Shown: piece by piece, positions 25,472 to 34,872 of the stretch
Layout: each line of letters starts with the position of its first letter
How positions within the stretch are numbered: the first letter of the stretch is position 1
From: Escherichia phage vB_EcoM_ESCO10
Sequence record: OM386655.1
Strand: one strand, 5' to 3'
Length of the DNA stretch: 64,000 nucleotides
Notes under the pieces: model-generated
The model's input: the letters and a program-made list of their open reading frames with translations, nothing else
Databases searched by the model: none
What the model was told of the DNA's origin: nothing
Position numbers and translations under genes: made by a program

Positions 25472-27031
25472 ATGAAAAAGAATGCATTAGTACAAAAATG
25501 GTCCGCTCTGCTGGAAAACGAAGCTCTTCCTGAAATCGTTGGTGCTTCTAAACAAGCCATCATCGCTAAAATCTTTGAAAACCAGGAACAAGATATTCTG
25601 ACCGCTCCTGAATATCGTGACGAAAAAATCTCTGAAGCATTTGGTTCTTTCCTGACTGAAGCCGAAATCGGTGGTGACCACGGTTATGATGCTACCAATA
25701 TCGCAGCTGGCCAGACCTCTGGTGCAGTAACTCAGATTGGGCCGGCAGTAATGGGTATGGTTCGTCGTGCTATTCCTCATCTGATTGCTTTTGATATTTG
25801 TGGTGTTCAGCCTCTGAATAACCCTACTGGTCAGGTATTTGCACTGCGTGCAGTATATGGTAAAGACCCTGTAGCTGCTGGTGCTAAAGAAGCTTTCCAC
25901 CCGATGTATGCTCCGAACGCTATGTTCTCTGGTCAGGGTGCTGCTGAAGCTTTCGAAGCTCTGGCTGCAAGCAAAGTTCTTACCGTTGGTAAAATTTATT
26001 CTCACTTCTTCGAAGCAACCGGTTCTGCACACTTCCAGGCTGTTGAAGCTGTAACCGTTGATGCCGCCGCTACTGATGCTGCTAAACTTGACGTTGAAGT
26101 TACCAAACTGCTCGAAGCTGGTAAGCTGGCAGAAATCGCTGAAGGTATGGCTACTTCTATCGCCGAACTTCAGGAAGGCTTTAACGGTTCCCAGGATAAC
26201 CCGTGGAACGAAATGGGCTTCCGCATCGATAAACAAGTTATCGAAGCTAAATCCCGTCAGCTGAAAGCAAGCTACTCCATCGAACTGGCACAGGACCTTC
26301 GTGCAGTACACGGTATGGATGCAGATGCTGAACTGAGTGGTATTCTTGCTACTGAAATTATGTTGGAAATCAACCGTGAAGTTATCGATTGGATTAACTA
26401 TTCTGCACAGGTTGGTAAATCTGGTATGACCAACACCGTTGGCGCTAAAGCTGGTGTGTTTGACTTCCAGGACCCGATTGATATCCGTGGTGCTCGTTGG
26501 GCCGGTGAAAGCTTTAAAGCTCTCCTGTTCCAGATTGATAAAGAAGCCGCCGAAATCGCTCGTCAGACCGGTCGTGGTGCTGGTAACTTCATCATCGCTT
26601 CCCGTAACGTAGTTAACGTACTGGCTGCAGTTGATACTTCTGTAAGTTATGCCGCTCAGGGTCTTGGTCAAGGTTTCAACGTTGACACTACCAAAGCAGT
26701 ATTTGCCGGTGTTCTTGGTGGTAAATATCGCGTTTACATCGACCAGTATGCTCGTGCTGATTACTTCACCATCGGTTATAAAGGTTCTAACGAAATGGAC
26801 GCAGGTATTTACTATGCTCCTTACGTTGCACTGACCCCACTGCGTGGTTCCGATCCGAAGAACTTCCAGCCGGTAATGGGCTTCAAAACTCGTTACGGTA
26901 TCGGTATTAACCCGTTCGCTGACCCAGCTGCTCAGGCACCTACCAAACGTATTCAGAATGGTATGCCGGACATCGTTAACAGCCTCGGTCTGAATGGTTA
27001 CTTCCGTCGCGTTTACGTTAAAGGTATCTAA
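25472..27031 (+). CDS. 23: major capsid protein gp23
   Basis: 519 aa; size and position as T4 gp23 (521 aa); tandem to gp24, with which it shares family. Confidence 0.97.
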   Translation: MKKNALVQKWSALLENEALPEIVGASKQAIIAKIFENQEQDILTAPEYRDEKISEAFGSFLTEAEIGGDHGYDATNIAAGQTSGAVTQIGPAVMGMVRRAIPHLIAFDICGVQPLNNPTGQVFALRAVYGKDPVAAGAKEAFHPMYAPNAMFSGQGAAEAFEALAASKVLTVGKIYSHFFEATGSAHFQAVEAVTVDAAATDAAKLDVEVTKLLEAGKLAEIAEGMATSIAELQEGFNGSQDNPWNEMGFRIDKQVIEAKSRQLKASYSIELAQDLRAVHGMDADAELSGILATEIMLEINREVIDWINYSAQVGKSGMTNTVGAKAGVFDFQDPIDIRGARWAGESFKALLFQIDKEAAEIARQTGRGAGNFIIASRNVVNVLAAVDTSVSYAAQGLGQGFNVDTTKAVFAGVLGGKYRVYIDQYARADYFTIGYKGSNEMDAGIYYAPYVALTPLRGSDPKNFQPVMGFKTRYGIGINPFADPAAQAPTKRIQNGMPDIVNSLGLNGYFRRVYVKGI

Positions 27032-27047
27032 GATATAACCTTATTAT

Positions 27048-27065
27048 GGGAGACTTCGGTCTCCC
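27048..27065 (+). terminator. terminator hairpin GGGAGAC-UUCG-GUCUCCC
   Basis: 7-bp GC-rich stem, UUCG tetraloop, T-rich tail, 17 nt after gene 23 stop. Confidence 0.7.
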
Positions 27066-27080
27066 ATTCTTGTTTCTGTA

Positions 27081-27347
27081 CTATACAATCTTGACTCTGC
27101 GATTGATAATATCGCGGAAGTCAATACGATTTTCTTGGATTTTCAACCAGTTGCCGGATTTGTCTTTGGTGTGGGTAGAATATTCACCGTTCCACCAGAA
27201 GTCAGTAGCATAAGTCATGGTTTCGTATTTCTTAACTAACGCATTAACTGCATTACCGTTAGGATTGCGGCCAAATTTTTCTACCAAGGCTTTGATGTCT
27301 TTATCAAGAGCGGAAAGTGTAGTACGAATAAAGTTTAACTTGTTCAT
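27081..27347 (-). CDS. hypothetical small protein (88 aa), antisense to the late capsid operon
   Basis: ORF track 27081..27362; ATG 27347 has GAGGAG SD 7 nt upstream; early-type promoter upstream; product MNKLNFIRTTLSALDKDIKALVEKFGRNPNG... has no family I recognise. Confidence 0.5.
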   Translation of the reverse strand: MNKLNFIRTTLSALDKDIKALVEKFGRNPNGNAVNALVKKYETMTYATDFWWNGEYSTHTKDKSGNWLKIQENRIDFRDIINRRVKIV

Positions 27348-27376
27348 TTTTAATCTCCTCATGTTTTGATAGGTCT

Positions 27377-27406
27377 ATAGTAACACGTGATAACCTTGGT
27401 GTAAAC
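27377..27406 (-). promoter_or_regulatory. sigma70/T4 early-type promoter (-35 GTTTACA, 17-nt spacer, -10 TACTAT)
   Basis: Minus-strand read: TTGTTTACAccaaggttatcacgtgtTACTATagacc, positioned 30-60 nt upstream of the antisense ORF. Confidence 0.5.
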
Positions 27407-27412
27407 AACTTT

Positions 27413-27420
27413 TATAAATA
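27413..27420 (+). promoter_or_regulatory. T4-type late promoter TATAAATA
   Basis: Exact TATAAATA 29 nt upstream of gene 24. Confidence 0.75.
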
Positions 27421-27448
27421 AACATATACCCTCAATAAGGAAAGCGCA

Positions 27449-28729
27449 ATGGCAAAGATTAACGAATTACTGCGCGAGTCAACAACTACTACCAGCAACT
27501 CATTGGGTCGCCCTAATCTTGTTGCTTTGACCCGTGCTACCACTAAACTAATTTATCGCGATATCATCGCTGAACAGCGTACAAACCAGCCTATCGCTGC
27601 GTTATACGGTGTCAAATACCTTACCCCTGATAATGAATTTAGCTTCCAGACTGGTGCTACTTACGGTGGTGAAGTTGGTTCTAAAGACCGTGAAACTATC
27701 CCGGAATTAACAGATAAGTCCCAGGCTATTGCCAAGGGTGGCTACTTTAAGTATCAGAATGTGGTTTATAAGGCTCTCGAATCAAGCCCTCTCGCATCTA
27801 CTAGCGCTACAGAATTGTCTGAAGCCCTCCAAGAAGGTTTAGTATCATTAACGTGTCGTTTGGTTCCAGATGCAGCCCACACAGAGAAATTCGAAGCAAA
27901 CGATGTCGAAATTAGCAATGCTGTATTCCAGGTTAATAAATGGAACGCTCCTGTTAAGTCTCGTAAACTTAAAACTTCTTTGACTGTGGAATTAGCCCAA
28001 GATATGGAATCTAATGGCTTCGACGCGCCGGCGTTCTTAGAAGACCTTTTAGCTACTGTAATGGCAGATGAAATCAATAAAGACGTATTACAATCCTTGA
28101 TTACAGTATCTAAACGTTACAGAGTAACAGGTGTATCTGATAACGGAATTATTGATTTATCTTATAATTCTGCTCCAGAAGGCGCACGTAAATTGTACGA
28201 AATGGTTTGTGAGATGAATTCCGAAATTCAGAAAACTACTTCTTATTCCGGTACGTTTGTTGTTGCCTCTAGTCGTGTGGCTGCGATGCTCGCAGGTTCC
28301 GGTTGGTTGAAACATAAACCTGAAGATGAGGCTTGGCTCCCAGAAACAGCTTATGGTTATTTGATTAATGGCTTACCTGTGTTCTGTGATGTGAATAGTC
28401 CATTGGATTATGTTACCGTAGGTGTTAAAGAAGACTACGGCGGTAATGAAGTTGTTGGTTCTATTTTCTACGCCCCGTACACCGAAGGTTTGGATTTAGA
28501 CGATCAAGAACACGTGGGTGCTTATAAGGTTATTGTAGACCCGGATAGTTTACAACCTTCAATTTCTCTAATGGTCCGTTATGCACTTTCGGCTAACCCT
28601 TATACTGTAGCTAAAGACGATAAAGAAGCTCGTATTATCGACGCAACTAATATGGATTTAATGGCAGGCCAGAGTAATATGTCATATCTGCTTGGTGTTA
28701 AACTTCCTCCAATTATTTACGAGGCATAA
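27449..28729 (+). CDS. 24: capsid vertex protein gp24
   Basis: 426 aa; MAKINELLRESTTTTSNSLGRPNLVALTRATTKLIY near-identical to T4 gp24 N-terminus. Confidence 0.95.
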   Translation: MAKINELLRESTTTTSNSLGRPNLVALTRATTKLIYRDIIAEQRTNQPIAALYGVKYLTPDNEFSFQTGATYGGEVGSKDRETIPELTDKSQAIAKGGYFKYQNVVYKALESSPLASTSATELSEALQEGLVSLTCRLVPDAAHTEKFEANDVEISNAVFQVNKWNAPVKSRKLKTSLTVELAQDMESNGFDAPAFLEDLLATVMADEINKDVLQSLITVSKRYRVTGVSDNGIIDLSYNSAPEGARKLYEMVCEMNSEIQKTTSYSGTFVVASSRVAAMLAGSGWLKHKPEDEAWLPETAYGYLINGLPVFCDVNSPLDYVTVGVKEDYGGNEVVGSIFYAPYTEGLDLDDQEHVGAYKVIVDPDSLQPSISLMVRYALSANPYTVAKDDKEARIIDATNMDLMAGQSNMSYLLGVKLPPIIYEA

Positions 28730-30013
28730 ATGAAAAAGATTAATGCATTAATACAAGAATCAACTTTGACGGCGGCGAACCAGGTCGCCCGTCCTAATCT
28801 TCTTTCATATACCCGAGCAACCAATAAAAGAATTTTTAAAGCCCTTGTTGCTGAACAAAAAACTACTCAGCCTGTAGCAGCATTATATGGCGTCCGTGTT
28901 TTAAACCCAGATGATAAAATGACTTATCTTGGTGGAGCTACCTTCGCAGGTGAAATTGGTATGTTTGAACGTAAAAACATTCCTGAGTTCACTAATAAAG
29001 ACGAAGCCTATGCTGCTGGTGATATGTTCCAATTTGAAAGCATAGTTTTCAAGGTATTAGAAGCTTCTCCATTTGCCGGAACCACTGAAACCGATTTAGG
29101 TGAAGTTATTTCAGAAGCTATTGCAGCGGGTCATATTCGTATGATGTCTGATGCAGCCTTTACCAATAAATTTGAAAAAGGGCATCCTGAGATTGCTGAA
29201 GCCGGGTTCCGTATTGATAAGTGGCAGACTGAAGTTAAATCACGTAAACTTAAAACTTCTTTGACTGTAGAACTGGCTCAGGATTTAGAATCTAACGGGT
29301 TTAATGCTCCGGACTTTATCGACAATATTTTGGCTATCCAAATGGCTGAAGAAATCAATAAAGACGTTCTACAATCTTTAATTACCGTGAGTTCACGTTT
29401 TAAAGTCCAGGGTGTTTCCGAAAAAGGTGTACTTAATCTTACTGATGCCGCTTATGATAATGCTCAGGACCGCGCGCGTACTTTATATTACTATATGTGT
29501 GAAATGAATTCTGCGGTTCAACGCCAGACTTCTTTTGCAGGTACTTATGCAGTAGCTAGTTCGCGTTGTGCCGCTATTTTAGCTGCGTCCGGTTGGGTTG
29601 AGAAAAAAGAAGACCAGGACGAATTGGCTTATGGTATATTAAAGAATGGACTACCTCTTTATGCTGATATGAATAGTCCGTGTGATTATGTTATTGTTGG
29701 TGTAAATGCTGATATGGGTGAAGGACAGACGGTCGCATCTTTGTATTATGCGCCATATGTAGAAGGCCTGGAAAACGTAGATGATGAGGGTGATACTTCT
29801 GTAGGTGAATTTAAGGTTATTGTAGACCCGGAAAGTTTGCAACCTACCGTAGCCCTGTTGGCTCGATATGCACTGACAGCAAACCCGTATACCGTTGCCA
29901 AAGATGATAAAGAAGCTCGTATTATTGATGGGTCCGATATGGATAAGATGGCTAACCAAAGTCAATTGAGTTCTTATCTTGGTGTTAAACTTCCTCCATT
30001 GGATAAAAACTAA
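28730..30013 (+). CDS. capsid vertex protein gp24 paralog (tandem duplicate)
   Basis: 427 aa; collinear with upstream gp24 (KSRKLKTSLTVELAQD, EINKDVLQSLITVS, ANPYTVAKDDKEARIID shared) but diverged elsewhere; ATG 1 nt after gp24 stop. Confidence 0.85.
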   Translation: MKKINALIQESTLTAANQVARPNLLSYTRATNKRIFKALVAEQKTTQPVAALYGVRVLNPDDKMTYLGGATFAGEIGMFERKNIPEFTNKDEAYAAGDMFQFESIVFKVLEASPFAGTTETDLGEVISEAIAAGHIRMMSDAAFTNKFEKGHPEIAEAGFRIDKWQTEVKSRKLKTSLTVELAQDLESNGFNAPDFIDNILAIQMAEEINKDVLQSLITVSSRFKVQGVSEKGVLNLTDAAYDNAQDRARTLYYYMCEMNSAVQRQTSFAGTYAVASSRCAAILAASGWVEKKEDQDELAYGILKNGLPLYADMNSPCDYVIVGVNADMGEGQTVASLYYAPYVEGLENVDDEGDTSVGEFKVIVDPESLQPTVALLARYALTANPYTVAKDDKEARIIDGSDMDKMANQSQLSSYLGVKLPPLDKN

Positions 30014-30016
30014 AAA

Positions 30017-30030
30017 GGGCCTTGCGGCCC
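30017..30030. terminator. bidirectional terminator hairpin GGGCC-UUGC-GGCCC
   Basis: Flanked by A5 upstream and T3 downstream; between convergent gp24-paralog and rnlB. Confidence 0.65.
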
Positions 30031-30038
30031 TTTATCGT

Positions 30039-31046
30039 TTATTTGGATACTAATTCAATCCACACAGCTCGTAGCGTATCTTTAACACACTCAATGAGCT
30101 GCTTTTTAACTTCAACAGGATTTTCTGCATCGGTTAATTCTAATTCTTCACGGGACGCCTCTTCCAAAATATCTTGGACTGTTAGTCCCATTACCTTTCC
30201 GAAATCCTTAGGCGTTACTTCACCAATCTTACTGATAACATTGTTAATACGGTTAACAGTCACATAATCAGTGAATTGCCACATCAAGTCCATGTCATCT
30301 TGGGACAACACAACAGCAGCCTTGATAGGCTTATCAGACTTTTTCTTTTCACTGAATTTAGAGTTCTTACATTTAATCGCTACACGATTTCCATTTGGAA
30401 GCCAGGTAGGAACATCAGGTTTCAGTACAAAGCCTTCAGCCGTAAATACTTTGCCTTCAACCTTTGGAATAAAATCAGTCGAGTTTGCGATAGTCAGGCC
30501 TGCATTATCCACTGCAAAATTGTAATCAGGAACCACAGAATCAAAATCATTAGGGAGCTTAATAAGGTCTTCAAAGCTACCAGTAGCCAGACATGGAGCA
30601 ACTTTAAACTTATGGATAATGCAGAATGCTTCCATCAATGTATCAGTCAGAACAGATTCTGTGCCGTCGTCTTTAGTAACGCGGATATCGAACACATAAA
30701 AATCTTTATCACCATAATCAACATTCTTCTGAATACCTGAACCGGCGAACTCACCATAAATCTGGTACGACTGATAATCAATCGATTCAATTAGATGCTG
30801 AACAGATTTAATAGAATCAGCATAATTCTTTAAAACAATTTCATAGCCATAGAAATCTTCGGCTGGGAGAATTGGGCCAGTGCGCTTGGCGCATGTGACT
30901 GCGTCACGTTCTATGATTAGACTAAAGTTCGTACCATGAATCTTTTCACGAGCTACCCATTCACCATCGGTCATACCATGGGTACGGAGTTTTTCAATGA
31001 ACTTATTGTTGTAGTGGTTTTCCAGACTGCTATATTTCTTGAACAT
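30039..31046 (-). CDS. rnlB: RNA ligase 2
   Basis: 335 aa; [13 protein letters not shown]...[19 protein letters not shown]...[21 protein letters not shown] matches T4 Rnl2 (KxHGxN nucleotidyltransferase motif). Confidence 0.93.
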
Positions 31047-31522: not shown

Positions 31523-32887
<1,365 letters not shown>

Positions 32888-32896
32888 GGACTACAA

Positions 32897-33715
32897 ATGG
32901 CTATTACATTAAGTCCATCTTCAATAGACGTAGAATACGGTGACTCTTATACAGTCACTGCTAATATTCCAGATATTAGCCCTGGTTCATCTATTGTGTA
33001 TAACTGGACTAAGAATAAAAAATTTATTAGTTCCGGAACTAATGTATTCACTGAAATAGCATCATCGGTAGAAACATTAAGTATTGCGTGCCGAATTGAA
33101 ATTATATCACCGGATAAAAACACTGAATATATTTTATCGGATTCTTGCTTGGTTAATGTTAGTAAAAACACAAAAGCGGACGGTATAAATTCTCAGCTAG
33201 TTTATTCACCAGATGTTCATAAAATAGGTGACCAAGTTATTCTTTCTGTAGAATCCCGCCATGTAGACCCTGGCTATATTAAAGGAGTTATTTGGAAAGA
33301 TCCATCGGGTAATGTCGTGTCAATTGGTAAAGAATATACGCATAAGATTAAGACGACAGAAGATGTTGTAGATGTAAAAATAGATTTGGCTTCTGAAAAT
33401 TATGCATATTACAATAAAACACTTCAAATTGTTCTTAAAGCTATTGAAGAAGATAATTCGGAGTGTAGTGTAAGATATATTCATCCTTTAGACCACAGGG
33501 ATTCAGGATACATCTGGATGGGTTGGTGGGTTATGGACGAAATTGAAAGGGCAACGGTAGAAGGATTAAATTGGAAAGCGCCGGACGGTACTGACCTGAA
33601 GTATAAGTGCGACTTGAAAACTCTTTCTATAATGCTTGACTTATATAATAATGTTGAAGTACAAGAATCAAGGAATGGTTATATTCTAAACAGGGCAGAT
33701 TTACTTCCAAAATAA
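32897..33715 (+). CDS. Hoc-like protein (second copy, shorter) with Hoc C-terminal capsid-binding domain
   Basis: 272 aa; C-terminus YIHPLDHRDSGYIWMGWWVMDEIERAT...VEVQESRNGYILNRADL parallels Hoc C-terminus; 9 nt downstream of collagen-like gene. Confidence 0.75.
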   Translation: MAITLSPSSIDVEYGDSYTVTANIPDISPGSSIVYNWTKNKKFISSGTNVFTEIASSVETLSIACRIEIISPDKNTEYILSDSCLVNVSKNTKADGINSQLVYSPDVHKIGDQVILSVESRHVDPGYIKGVIWKDPSGNVVSIGKEYTHKIKTTEDVVDVKIDLASENYAYYNKTLQIVLKAIEEDNSECSVRYIHPLDHRDSGYIWMGWWVMDEIERATVEGLNWKAPDGTDLKYKCDLKTLSIMLDLYNNVEVQESRNGYILNRADLLPK

Positions 33716-33741: not shown

Positions 33742-34845
33742 TTAATAGACGTAATCGTATATAATACCAGCTTCCAATGCCGAACGGTGGACGATACGAC
33801 CGTTACGAGATTCCTGTACATCAACTTCCGGGTAATCACTAAGCATTTTGGCTAATACAGCCAGATGACAATAATACGGTGTATCCTCTTTAGTGGCTTT
33901 TTTCCAATCTGTACTTTCAGATGTTAATTTCTGAATAGCGTCCATAACCCACCAACCACACCAAATATACGCAGTATTACGGACAGGAAGTGGATGTACA
34001 TAAATTAAAGGACATTCTTCTGGAACAACAGGCTCTGCTTCTGCCACCGTAACAGACTTATTACCTGATTTAACTGAATTTGTAAAGCCTGATTGTGATG
34101 CAGTAACTTCACAAGTATATGACTTCAAGCCTTCAGTGGATTCCGTTATTGCTCTTGTTGCTTCTGTTGAGTTGTCGTCCCATTTATATGCAAGAGTAGC
34201 ACCAGGGATAGCAGGGGACACGGAAGCTGTCAAATTGAATGGAACATCAACCGTTGCAGTAGACGGGCCTGAAATCTCAACAGTGAACTCAGGAAATGTA
34301 TTGTTTTCGACCGTAACAACTACTGCATCAGGATTAATAACTTGGTTGTCATAATCTGCAGCAGAAATGGTAATTTGACAAGTTAAAGAAACCGGTCCTG
34401 CAACAGTAGCGGTGCGAGTAATATCTTTGGTAGTTTCACCGGTAGACCACAAATATGCTATTGAAGCTCCACCAGGTTCACCTGTTACATTAGCCGAAGC
34501 TTTATATTCCTGTCCAACTTTAACGGTAGGAGTGGAAGTTGTTAATGTTGCGGTTGCAGACATAGTCTTATTATTAACTGTGATGGTTGTTTGAGCCTCT
34601 GCCGTTTCAGGCTCTCCTTCTTCCGGCGTTGTGGTGGCAACAACTTTAATTACTTTTGAACCTGCTGGCCCAGCTGCAATATAATCCATAGTAGCAATAA
34701 CAGAATCTTGTGGAACCTCATCAACGGTCCATACAAAAGATTCGGTACCAGCGACAGCGGCTCCAGCTCCAGTGGCAGTAAAATTAGTTGTTGCACCTAT
34801 AACCGCTGTAGGTGTTAAAGGGGCAATTGATACAGTATAAGCCAT
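33742..34845 (-). CDS. hoc: highly immunogenic outer capsid protein Hoc
   Basis: ORF track starts at TTG 34857; ATG 34845 with GGAG SD; Ig-like repeats plus C-terminal YVHPLPVRNTAYIWCGWWVMDAIQK...EVDVQESRNGRIVHRSALE as in T4 Hoc. Confidence 0.85.
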   Translation of the reverse strand: MAYTVSIAPLTPTAVIGATTNFTATGAGAAVAGTESFVWTVDEVPQDSVIATMDYIAAGPAGSKVIKVVATTTPEEGEPETAEAQTTITVNNKTMSATATLTTSTPTVKVGQEYKASANVTGEPGGASIAYLWSTGETTKDITRTATVAGPVSLTCQITISAADYDNQVINPDAVVVTVENNTFPEFTVEISGPSTATVDVPFNLTASVSPAIPGATLAYKWDDNSTEATRAITESTEGLKSYTCEVTASQSGFTNSVKSGNKSVTVAEAEPVVPEECPLIYVHPLPVRNTAYIWCGWWVMDAIQKLTSESTDWKKATKEDTPYYCHLAVLAKMLSDYPEVDVQESRNGRIVHRSALEAGIIYDYVY

Positions 34846-34872
34846 AAAAATCTCCAAAAGGCCACTAGGGCC

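Follow-up and report, generated by a model that had tools for sequence, protein, structure and literature searches.

A tandem pair of long-diverged gp24-family vertex protein genes in Escherichia phage vB_EcoM_ESCO10 and its relatives

Escherichia phage vB_EcoM_ESCO10 carries two full-length genes of the capsid vertex protein family in direct succession, and we consider it likely that they represent an old paralogous pair of vertex genes, conserved in six genera of Tevenvirinae, whose products assemble together and probably divide the labor of the single T4 protein. We analyzed a stretch of 64,000 nucleotides from sequence record OM386655.1 (hereafter the window), which belongs to a JS98-like Dhakavirus. 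The existence of the pair was known before, having been annotated in JS98 and relatives; new here are the selection acting on the two copies, their parallel divergence, the predicted late transcription unit, the gp21 protease motif, the age of the split, the paralog-specific sites and the single copy in phage DK-13. The pair presents a puzzle, as some T4-like phages strongly conserve two vertex proteins, whereas T4 requires a single one and, once mutated, can dispense even with that.

The pair consists of two open reading frames on the plus strand that abut without a gap:

27449 to 28729, plus strand: gene 24a, capsid vertex protein of 426 aa, ortholog of T4 gp24.
28721 to 28724, plus strand: Shine-Dalgarno motif GAGG as read from the sequence, within the 3' end of 24a and 5 nt before the ATG of 24b.
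28730 to 30013, plus strand: gene 24b, encoding a diverged vertex protein paralog of 427 aa.

The TAA stop codon of 24a occupies positions 28727 to 28729 and the ATG of 24b begins at 28730, leaving a spacing of 0 nt; together with the internal GAGG, this arrangement suggests translational coupling of the two genes. In every two-copy phage examined, the genes abut exactly, are separated by 1 nt or overlap by 1-4 nt. A BLASTP comparison of 24a with 24b gives 236 identities in 428 positions (55%, with 75% positives, E = 4e-178), a resemblance far above chance level, while each is only about 28% identical to the gp23-like major capsid protein of the same phage.

The initial annotation described two full-length gp24 homologs lying back to back, 0 nt apart, and both the coordinates and the end-to-end alignments with T4 gp24 agree with this description. 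Against the T4 gp24 structure (1YUE/7VS5), 24a scores 665 bits (E = 3.6e-199) and 24b 505 bits (E = 1.8e-150), each over residues 1-424, and gp23 chains score merely 46-49 bits against the same queries. The PF07068 profile is matched at 328.7 bits by 24a and 332.1 bits by 24b (cut-off 24.4), phrog_138 is matched with E values of 6.6e-132 and 2.8e-124, and the lengths of 426 and 427 aa compare with 519 aa for gp23. Homology, profile matches, length and propeptide, and gene position thus all place both proteins in the T4 gp24 family (PF07068, PHROG 138). The first copy was said to be near-identical to T4 gp24 at its N-terminus, which is borne out by 34 matches in the first 36 residues; it is also the T4-type copy overall, being 71% identical to T4 gp24 (56% for 24b) and grouping with it in trees. 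T4 gp24 (1YUE, 5VF3, 7VS5) shares with the pair its family, length and position after gene 23, and its propeptide is identical to that of 24a; the difference is that T4 has one gp24 gene for all 11 non-portal vertices and ESCO10 has two long-diverged versions. By homology to the solved T4 protein, 24a and 24b would both adopt an HK97-like fold into which an I domain is inserted. For 24b, the AlphaFold2 model built from a 36-sequence alignment was too poor for a fold search (mean pLDDT 47.8, pTM 0.30).

The feature is already known, since the pair is annotated in JS98 and about 117 related genomes. A gene 24 duplication in JS98 was reportedly mentioned when that phage was first sequenced, in a 2004 abstract. 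The names 24a and 24b appear in the annotations of JS98, JS10 and IME08, the pair is labeled vertex protein I/II in VR5, VR20 and CGG4-1, and it is labeled 24(1)/24(2) in VR7. We find the same tandem in JS98, JS10, Bp7, dhabil, MN04, VR5, VR7, VR20, Melville, PWKp18, IME523, Kosakonia 305 and Cronus. Two gp24 places are present in about 117-118 phage records, and about 117 records from six genera of Tevenvirinae carry the tandem in the order a then b; a single gp24 is found in about 1,270 of 1,383 T4-like phage records. A full-text literature search outside the JS98 genome papers found none that deals with a gp24 pair, with how its genes are expressed or with where the products sit in the virion, and it found no proteomic, virion-composition or cryo-EM data for any two-gp24 phage.

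JS98 (EF469154 / NC_010105; Dhakavirus) has the same architecture as ESCO10, namely gene 23, a small reverse ORF, 24a, 24b and a convergent rnlB, with a 24a of 1281 nt and a 24b of 1284 nt at 0-nt spacing. The ESCO10 pair agrees with the JS98-type tandem in order, strand, junction, position between gene 23 and rnlB, and placement of the copies in the a and b clades. The proteins of the two phages are 96.0% (24a) and 96.5% (24b) identical and the DNA is about 90% identical (~10% nucleotide divergence). ESCO10 is nevertheless a different mosaic from JS98: its 24a is nearest to VR5, its 24b is nearest to JS98/IME341/VR7, and its hoc region, farther downstream, is VR5-like rather than JS98-like. 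Beyond the Dhakaviruses, the order a then b after gene 23, with abutting or overlapping genes of the same two clades, recurs in Gaprivervirus (VR7, VR20) and Gelderlandvirus (S16, Melville, CGG4-1), and the same order, junction type and clades are seen in Kanagawavirus (IME523, Kosakonia 305), Marfavirus (F48, PWKp18) and Roskildevirus (Cronus). The 24b proteins of Gelderland-, Kanagawa- and Marfavirus are 77-86% identical to that of ESCO10, with different flanking genes, and the copy in Erwinia phage FBB1 is 69% identical to it.

The order of head genes in the window is 20, small ORFs, 21, 22 and 23, followed by 24a and 24b, and the pair is flanked by the following features:

25472 to 27031, plus strand: gene 23 homolog, major capsid protein of 519 aa (PF07068, 411 bits), the hexamer-forming partner.
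27046 to 27067, plus strand: terminator-like hairpin with a T-run, having a 9-pair stem (5 G-C), a loop of 4 and the tail TCTTGTTTCT.
27081 to 27362, minus strand: small ORF of 93 aa between genes 23 and 24a, matching phrog_6003 (function unknown) with E = 1.4e-48.
27413 to 27420, plus strand: T4-type late promoter motif TATAAATA, an exact match, 28 nt upstream of the 24a start codon.
27437 to 27441, plus strand: Shine-Dalgarno-like AAGGA as read from the sequence, 7 nt before the 24a ATG.
30014 to 30033, both strands: G+C-rich, terminator-like hairpin with an 8-pair stem (5 G-C), immediately following the stop codon of 24b.

The T4 late promoter consensus is TATAAATA, and the window holds 16 matches to it against 7.2 expected, 14 of them on the plus strand; the copy at 27413-27420 is a predicted late promoter. 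A scan for motifs and hairpins found neither a late promoter motif nor a terminator-like site between 24a and 24b. With the motif upstream of 24a and the hairpin after 24b, the two genes probably form one late transcription unit. The frequency of E. coli-optimal codons (Fop) is 0.58 for 24a and 0.54 for 24b, close to T4 gp24 (0.55), compared with 0.48 for the portal gene and 0.80 for gp23, the highest of the region. As to the surroundings of the pair, the predicted terminator at 27046-27067 rests on a consensus match, and the records of Melville and Mineola have a terminator annotated at the corresponding position. The 93-aa opposite-strand ORF, which is context outside the pair, is equivalent to JS98 orf173 and VR7 gp190, and T4 has a homing endonuclease in its place. 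The convergent rnlB (30039-31046, minus strand) lies beyond the downstream hairpin.

Both copies are under strong purifying selection. The dN/dS values (Nei-Gojobori), computed on pairs with unsaturated dS, are 0.04-0.08 for 24a and 0.02-0.07 for 24b, and a b-type gene is present, intact and full length, in 113 records (E ≤ 1e-180). The second copy, which had been noted as diverged, is therefore also conserved and evidently functional. The branching order within the a clade and within the b clade is largely parallel, indicating that 24a and 24b diverged in parallel across the genera.

The divergence of the second copy had been placed, by way of example, in the N-terminal 120 aa and around residues 215-240. 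It is indeed diverged there, but this location is only partly right, because the differences between a and b extend over the full length of the protein. In T4 gp24 numbering, the identity between 24a and 24b is about 55-60% in residues 1-59, falls to about 39-41% in residues 60-142 (I-domain linker 1 and the I domain, a segment that is variable among orthologs too), and is 50% in 143-160, 54% in 216-250, 50% in 251-300, 58% in 301-345, 53% in 346-362 and 52% in 401-427. The well-conserved parts are the P-domain/spine-helix region (161-215, 71%) and the region 363-400 (79%). At the N-terminus, 24a reads MAKINELLRE followed by S and 24b reads MKKINALIQE followed by S, so that the gp21 protease motif (L/I)-x-E at residues 8-10 is retained in both, and E10 and S11 are invariant across the 36-sequence gp24 alignment. 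In T4 gp24, the 10 N-terminal residues are removed by cleavage after residue 10 (PMC9546572).

These features are consistent with a pathway in which both proteins would be produced late, would co-assemble with gp23 on the scaffold into the prohead and would lose their first 10 residues to the gp21 protease. As pentamers they would then fill the 11 non-portal vertices; that 24b enters the capsid is predicted from its sequence. The equivalents of the gp23 positions that control pentamer formation and allow bypass of gp24 (R277, A283, G309) are invariant in 24a and 24b, which is compatible with pentamer formation by both copies and is no proof of it.

Between the two copies, 49 alignment columns are fixed within a and fixed within b and differ between a and b, including columns in 25-27, 56-68 and 284-293, and in the loop aligned with T4 gp24 286-300 24b lacks 4 residues and shows altered charges. 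Residues that tell the paralogs apart include L27/Y27, Y57/V57 and K289-H290/E289-K290. At 33 of the 49 sites 24a carries the consensus of single-copy phages, which makes 24b the more derived copy. Residues 26-29 of T4 gp24 pair with the I-domain linker of the adjacent gp24 subunit, and its AP loop touches I-domain linker 2 of the neighboring gp23 hexamer; gp23 384-400, with which the gp24 segment 284-293 aligns, is named as the corresponding AP-loop region (PMC9546572). Mapped by sequence alignment to T4 and the published description rather than by coordinates, the paralog-specific fixed differences thus appear to lie partly in regions through which, in T4, pentamers contact hexamers and subunits contact each other within a pentamer.

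The most likely reading of these patterns is a division of labor (subfunctionalization) between 24a and 24b. The fixed differences within stretches involved in T4 pentamer contacts suggest that 24a and 24b each form homopentamers of their own, which would meet different hexamer surroundings in a prolate head, at the distal apex, in the distal ring of five or in the portal-proximal ring of five. One paralog might, for example, be confined to the single distal apex or to the five vertices near the portal, with the other at all remaining positions. The initial annotation had raised the idea of a specialized vertex, which is plausible and compatible with the paralog-specific changes in contact regions. 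That the two homopentamers hold different vertex symmetry classes, with an ancient pair that some Tevenvirinae lineages retained and T4 lost, is a possibility that we put forward only tentatively. All 55 gp24 subunits of T4 have essentially one conformation (PMC9546572), and hence there is no known structural need for proteins specific to a vertex class. If the two proteins do occupy different vertices, capsids can use position-specific pentons, here in a tailed phage, which would bear on the determination of head length and caps and on how a prolate shell distinguishes its caps. A view cited in PMC10580926 traces the vertex protein itself to an earlier duplication of the gene for the major capsid protein, and the pair would echo that event as a capsid-shell gene duplicated again with specialization of the copies; gp23 and gp24 share about 21-28% identity and have distinct, proven roles in hexamer and pentamer, compared with the 55% identity of 24a and 24b. 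For the engineering of T4-like capsids or therapy with Dhakaviruses, the only consequence is that neither gene should be regarded as anything but structural.

Alternatively, the two paralogs may be interchangeable or redundant, with either filling any of the 11 vertices as randomly placed homopentamers or in mixed pentamers. The pair would then be retained for dosage, for robustness of assembly (temperature, gut stress) or as a safeguard should a host factor attack one version; we regard this explanation as unlikely. Single-gp24 phages are the rule, and Gapriverviruses of the DK-13 type manage with one gene: DK-13 has a gp23 that almost matches the VR20 protein over its C-terminal 255 residues, and its single gp24 implies that the second copy is not indispensable for this capsid type. 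Point mutants of T4 gp23 can stand in for gp24 altogether (PMC10580926, PMC9546572). The predicted co-transcription of 24a and 24b, with no sign of differential regulation, also fits interchangeable copies. In addition, the tree of 24a differs in its details from that of 24b within the Dhaka- and Gapriverviruses, implying that the two genes recombine among close relatives and can be reshuffled independently, and this argues against a tight pairwise co-adaptation of the two proteins. However, purely redundant copies would be unlikely to persist at dN/dS values of 0.02-0.08 through the divergence of six genera, the 49 differently fixed sites would not be expected, and no defense system is known to sense gp24.

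In a further alternative, a recent in-place tandem duplication in the JS98 lineage was followed by rapid divergence (neofunctionalization) of the downstream copy. The adjacency, common orientation and equal length of the genes and the more derived state of 24b are what such an event would produce, and the long stem of the b clade (0.19-0.21 substitutions per site) could draw b to a basal position in distance trees. The trees give a different history. The ESCO10 copies fall inside the a and b clades with 99-100% bootstrap support (99.7-100% for the b clade). The 24a copy clusters with T4, Karamvirus and DK-13 gp24, leaving 24b outside (89-92%), and likewise with the whole set of regular enterobacterial gp24, again without 24b (96%). 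The quartet sites favor (a,T4 | b,Jiaodavirus) with 13 sites, against 3 for (a,b) and 2 for (a,Jiaodavirus), and among shared-derived sites polarized with Acinetobacter phages, 7 unite a with T4 and 2 unite a with b. Moreover, 24b shares 64% identity with the gp24 of Klebsiella Jiaodaviruses (Mineola), which have one copy, and 56% with its neighbor 24a, an order that acceleration of the b branch alone cannot yield. Cronus and FBB1, distant phages of Erwinia, already possess the pair, and each of their copies splits off early within its own clade. A recent duplication is thus improbable, and the pair does not behave as a recent tandem duplicate (in-paralogs). The initial annotation had read the locus as a tandem duplication and proposed a phylogeny of the family; a duplication event in this phage or its near lineage is not supported by the gp24 trees, where 24a and 24b are not each other's closest relatives. 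The a/b split is older than the separation between the vertex proteins of T4 and JS98, and we therefore conclude that the pair arose through old paralogy or lateral acquisition and not through recent duplication. In these comparisons 24a is the counterpart of T4 gp24 and 24b is a separate, deeper-branching lineage, a modest correction of the usual "gene 24 duplication" label.

That 24b is no shell component at all and instead a gp24-derived assembly factor acting in the prohead only, a decoy or a poorly expressed relic is very improbable: codon adaptation is slightly lower in 24b than in 24a in 8 of 8 phages compared, but the gene is intact and full length throughout its 113 records under purifying selection as strong as on 24a, its alignment with T4 gp24 covers all domains, and it keeps the segments best conserved with 24a, the protease motif and the invariant capsomer-interface positions.

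Two further candidates were considered. Gene conversion between a and b is not supported: the a/b nucleotide identity is 0.62 within genomes, hardly above the 0.59-0.60 between genomes, with a slight excess at the two ends only. A blastn overlap suggested the DK-13 gp24 as an a/b recombinant from unequal crossing-over, and a sliding-window comparison of the proteins rejects this, showing it to be a-like throughout. The tree of the gp23 C-terminal 255 residues, built as a species tree for counting gains and losses of 24b, is poorly resolved and visibly mosaic, with Melville, for example, grouped with CkP1.

The window carries two full-length homologs of gp24, the capsid vertex (pentamer) protein of T4, which lie behind the gene for the hexamer-forming major capsid protein gp23 and are referred to here as 24a and 24b:

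25472-27031, gp23 homolog just upstream of the pair, 519 aa
27449-28729, + strand, 24a, 426 aa
28730-30013, + strand, 24b, 427 aa

The TAA of 24a (28727-28729) directly abuts the ATG of 24b with no spacer, and the two proteins share 55% identity and 75% similarity across their full length (E 4e-178). In a search of all solved-structure sequences, both copies match T4 gp24 (1YUE, 7VS5) from end to end (665 bits for 24a, 505 for 24b), with gp23 chains scoring below 50 bits against both; the window gp23 homolog is about 28% identical to either copy, and both copies pass Pfam PF07068 and PHROG 138. These results bear out the abutting pair reported in the initial annotation, with its exact coordinates, and also the close likeness of the first copy to T4 gp24 at the N-terminus, where 34 of the first 36 residues are identical. 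Overall identity to T4 gp24 is 71% for 24a and 56% for 24b, so that the second copy is diverged as had been claimed, but the differences between the two copies are spread along the protein rather than limited to the N-terminal 120 residues and residues 215-240. The two copies are least alike in I-domain linker 1 and the I domain (T4 residues 60-142, 39-41%) and most alike at residues 161-215 (71%) and 363-400 (79%).

The pair exists as described, is usual in this phage group and is already known. A megablast search of GenBank phages with positions 27000-30100 gave 91 records covering at least 80% of the query, with the Dhakaviruses MN04, JS98 and IME341 as the best matches at about 90% identity. 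In JS98 the locus is arranged as in the window: gene 23 is followed by a small ORF on the reverse strand, then by 24a and, without spacer, 24b, and finally by convergent rnlB; its record names the two vertex genes "24a gp24 head vertex protein" (1281 nt) and "24b gp24 head vertex protein" (1284 nt). These gene names recur in JS10 and IME08, and the pair is labelled capsid vertex protein I and II in VR5 and VR20, 24(1) and 24(2) in VR7, and head vertex protein I and II in Salmonella phage CGG4-1; the feature has therefore been annotated before. The 2004 paper on JS98 reportedly mentions the duplication of gene 24. With 24b as the tblastn query, gp24 homologs were found at 1,501 places in 1,383 phage records, about 118 of which have two, and the Erwinia phage FBB1 copy as query gave 1,206 places in 1,089 records, about 117 with two; b-type genes are present in 113 records (E<=1e-180). 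The loci that we inspected come from six genera, Dhakavirus, Gaprivervirus (VR7, VR20), Gelderlandvirus (Melville), Marfavirus (PWKp18), Kanagawavirus (IME523, Kosakonia 305) and Roskildevirus (Erwinia phage Cronus), and in all of them a precedes b directly after gene 23, with a junction of 0 nt, a 1-nt spacer or an overlap of 1-4 nt. A search of a large protein collection returned both types from FBB1, together with metagenomic b-type proteins at 66-69% identity.

The following candidate expression signals were found around the pair:

27046-27067, hairpin and T-run after gene 23 (consensus match)
27413-27420, late-promoter motif TATAAATA upstream of 24a (consensus match)
before the 24a start, AAGGA (sequence reading)
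5 nt before the 24b start, within the end of 24a, GAGG (sequence reading)
30014-30033, G+C-rich hairpin immediately after the 24b stop

The motif TATAAATA is the T4 late-promoter consensus. No late-promoter motif and no terminator-like site separates 24a from 24b, and with this layout of promoter, Shine-Dalgarno sequences and hairpins the two genes read as what would be a single bicistronic late unit whose translation is coupled. E. coli-optimal codons make up a fraction of 0.58 in 24a and 0.54 in 24b, compared with 0.55 in T4 gp24, 0.48 in the portal gene and 0.80 in gp23, and this value is higher in 24a than in 24b in eight of the eight phages compared; there is a weak hint that both may be moderately expressed, 24a somewhat more. 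The whole window contains 16 copies of TATAAATA, where shuffling predicts 7.2; 14 of the copies are on the + strand, which fits a block of late structural genes read rightward as far as position ~38 kb. The gap between genes 23 and 24 is filled here by a small reverse ORF of unknown function (27081-27362, - strand; phrog_6003); it holds a homing endonuclease in T4, IME08 and IME341, and is empty in Melville and PWKp18.

Most likely, 24a and 24b would be co-expressed vertex proteins that are functionally non-identical, and the main rival explanation is that the two mix randomly or are redundant. At 49 alignment columns each paralog is invariant but the two carry different states; the state of single-copy phages is kept by 24a at 33 of them and by 24b at 14. 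These paralog-specific sites include residues 25-27, 56-68 and a cluster at 284-293, in which 24b lacks four residues. In T4 gp24, residues 26-29 pair with an I-domain linker that belongs to the next subunit of their own pentamer, residues 11-20 extend onto a neighbouring hexamer, and the AP loop touches I-domain linker 2 of a gp23 hexamer next to it, gp23 384-400 being named as the corresponding AP-loop region (PMC9546572); gp24 284-293 aligns opposite gp23 384-400. Taken with the published description, the fixed differences in contact segments fit the idea that 24a and 24b sort into separate pentamers, whose hexamer contacts would be somewhat different. The AlphaFold model of 24b was of poor quality. 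Certain vertices may be specialised, as the initial annotation had proposed, which would be interesting if true; in T4 all 55 gp24 subunits look alike (PMC9546572), so T4 offers no precedent for vertex-specific proteins.

Redundancy also has to be weighed with DK-13, a phage filed under Gaprivervirus whose flanks are the same as in pair-bearing phages and whose genome has a single gp24 without 24b (locus L016, MT611523, 2001-3281; gp23 and rnlB flanks resembling those of VR20). The C-terminal 255 residues of its gp23 are almost identical to VR20, and its gp24 is a-like throughout its length, yet only 69% identical to 24a; an a/b chimera is ruled out by this likeness along the whole protein. 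Genes of the DK-13 type occur in 19 records (>=90% identity). In DK-13 the pair has been naturally replaced or lost, and its near-identical gp23 and single gp24 imply that such a capsid can be assembled with just one gp24 of another type, which argues that 24b would not be absolutely required, although it may be needed alongside the particular 24a of this phage.

Both members have been constrained and co-inherited for a long time, as indicated by low dN/dS (0.04-0.08 for 24a, 0.02-0.07 for 24b; Nei-Gojobori, codon alignments of ten phages, unsaturated dS only) and by a largely similar branching order and similar amounts of divergence inside the groups holding all 24a and all 24b sequences (the a and b clades). 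The motif (L/I)-x-E at residues 8-10, followed by Ser11, is kept in both copies; at this site the prohead protease cuts off the first 10 residues of T4 gp24 (PMC9546572). Residues R277, A283 and G309, which align with gp23 N381, A387 and K420, the sites whose mutation lets gp23 substitute for gp24, are invariant in 24a and 24b, and a non-structural 24b is unlikely.

In neighbour-joining trees (Kimura-corrected distances, 200-300 bootstraps), the 24b sequences form a single clade (99.7-100%) on a long stem, and the 24a sequences nest in a clade that also holds the single-copy gp24 proteins of T4, Karamvirus and DK-13 (89-92%). With wider sampling, 24a falls among the regular enterobacterial Tevenvirinae gp24, all of which form a clade with the b clade outside it (96%). 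A recent duplication as the source of the pair is unlikely, because 24a clusters with T4-type gp24 to the exclusion of the b clade. 24b has 64% identity to the only gp24 in Klebsiella phage Mineola against 56% to the neighbouring 24a, an order that acceleration of the b branch alone cannot yield. Among informative sites (clade consensus states), 13 group 24a with T4 and 24b with Jiaodavirus, against 3 and 2 for the alternatives, and with Acinetobacter-phage sequences used for polarisation, 24a and T4 share 7 derived states and 24a and 24b share 2. With the caveats that these methods are distance-based and parsimony-like, that the long b stem makes long-branch attraction possible and that the replacements at the polarised sites are conservative, the evidence places the a/b split before the vertex proteins of T4 and JS98 separated. 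The pair goes back either to an old duplication that several lineages lost later or to a laterally spread cassette; the gp23-based tree is unresolved and mosaic, and there is no clear sign of gene conversion between 24a and 24b.

Comparison of 27449-30013 with other phages (loci L001, L009 and L011) gave VR5 (96.5%) and JS98 (96.0%) as the nearest relatives of 24a, and IME341 (97.0%), JS98 (96.5%) and VR7 (95.8%) as those of 24b, with VR5 at only 90.8%. These differing relatives point to probable recombination between or within 24a and 24b among Dhaka- and Gapriverviruses.

Only 3 kb from 24a/24b lies a second two-copy capsid-surface gene, a pair of convergent Hoc-like head-decoration paralogs (32897-33715, + strand, 272 aa; 33742-34857, - strand, 371 aa) that share 31% identity (E 4e-34), a match to phrog_1149 and the C-terminal motif HPL...YIW.GWWVMD...VQESRNG. 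In JS98 a single hoc lies at this position, whereas two are annotated in dhabil and dhaeg. Between rnlB and the Hoc-like genes is inserted a 454-aa ORF (31523-32887, + strand) that consists largely of collagen-like G-X-Y repeats, matches phrog_5073 'tail fiber protein' (E 7e-107) and is absent here in JS98; in VR5 this region is 93.6% identical and annotated as a tail fiber protein.
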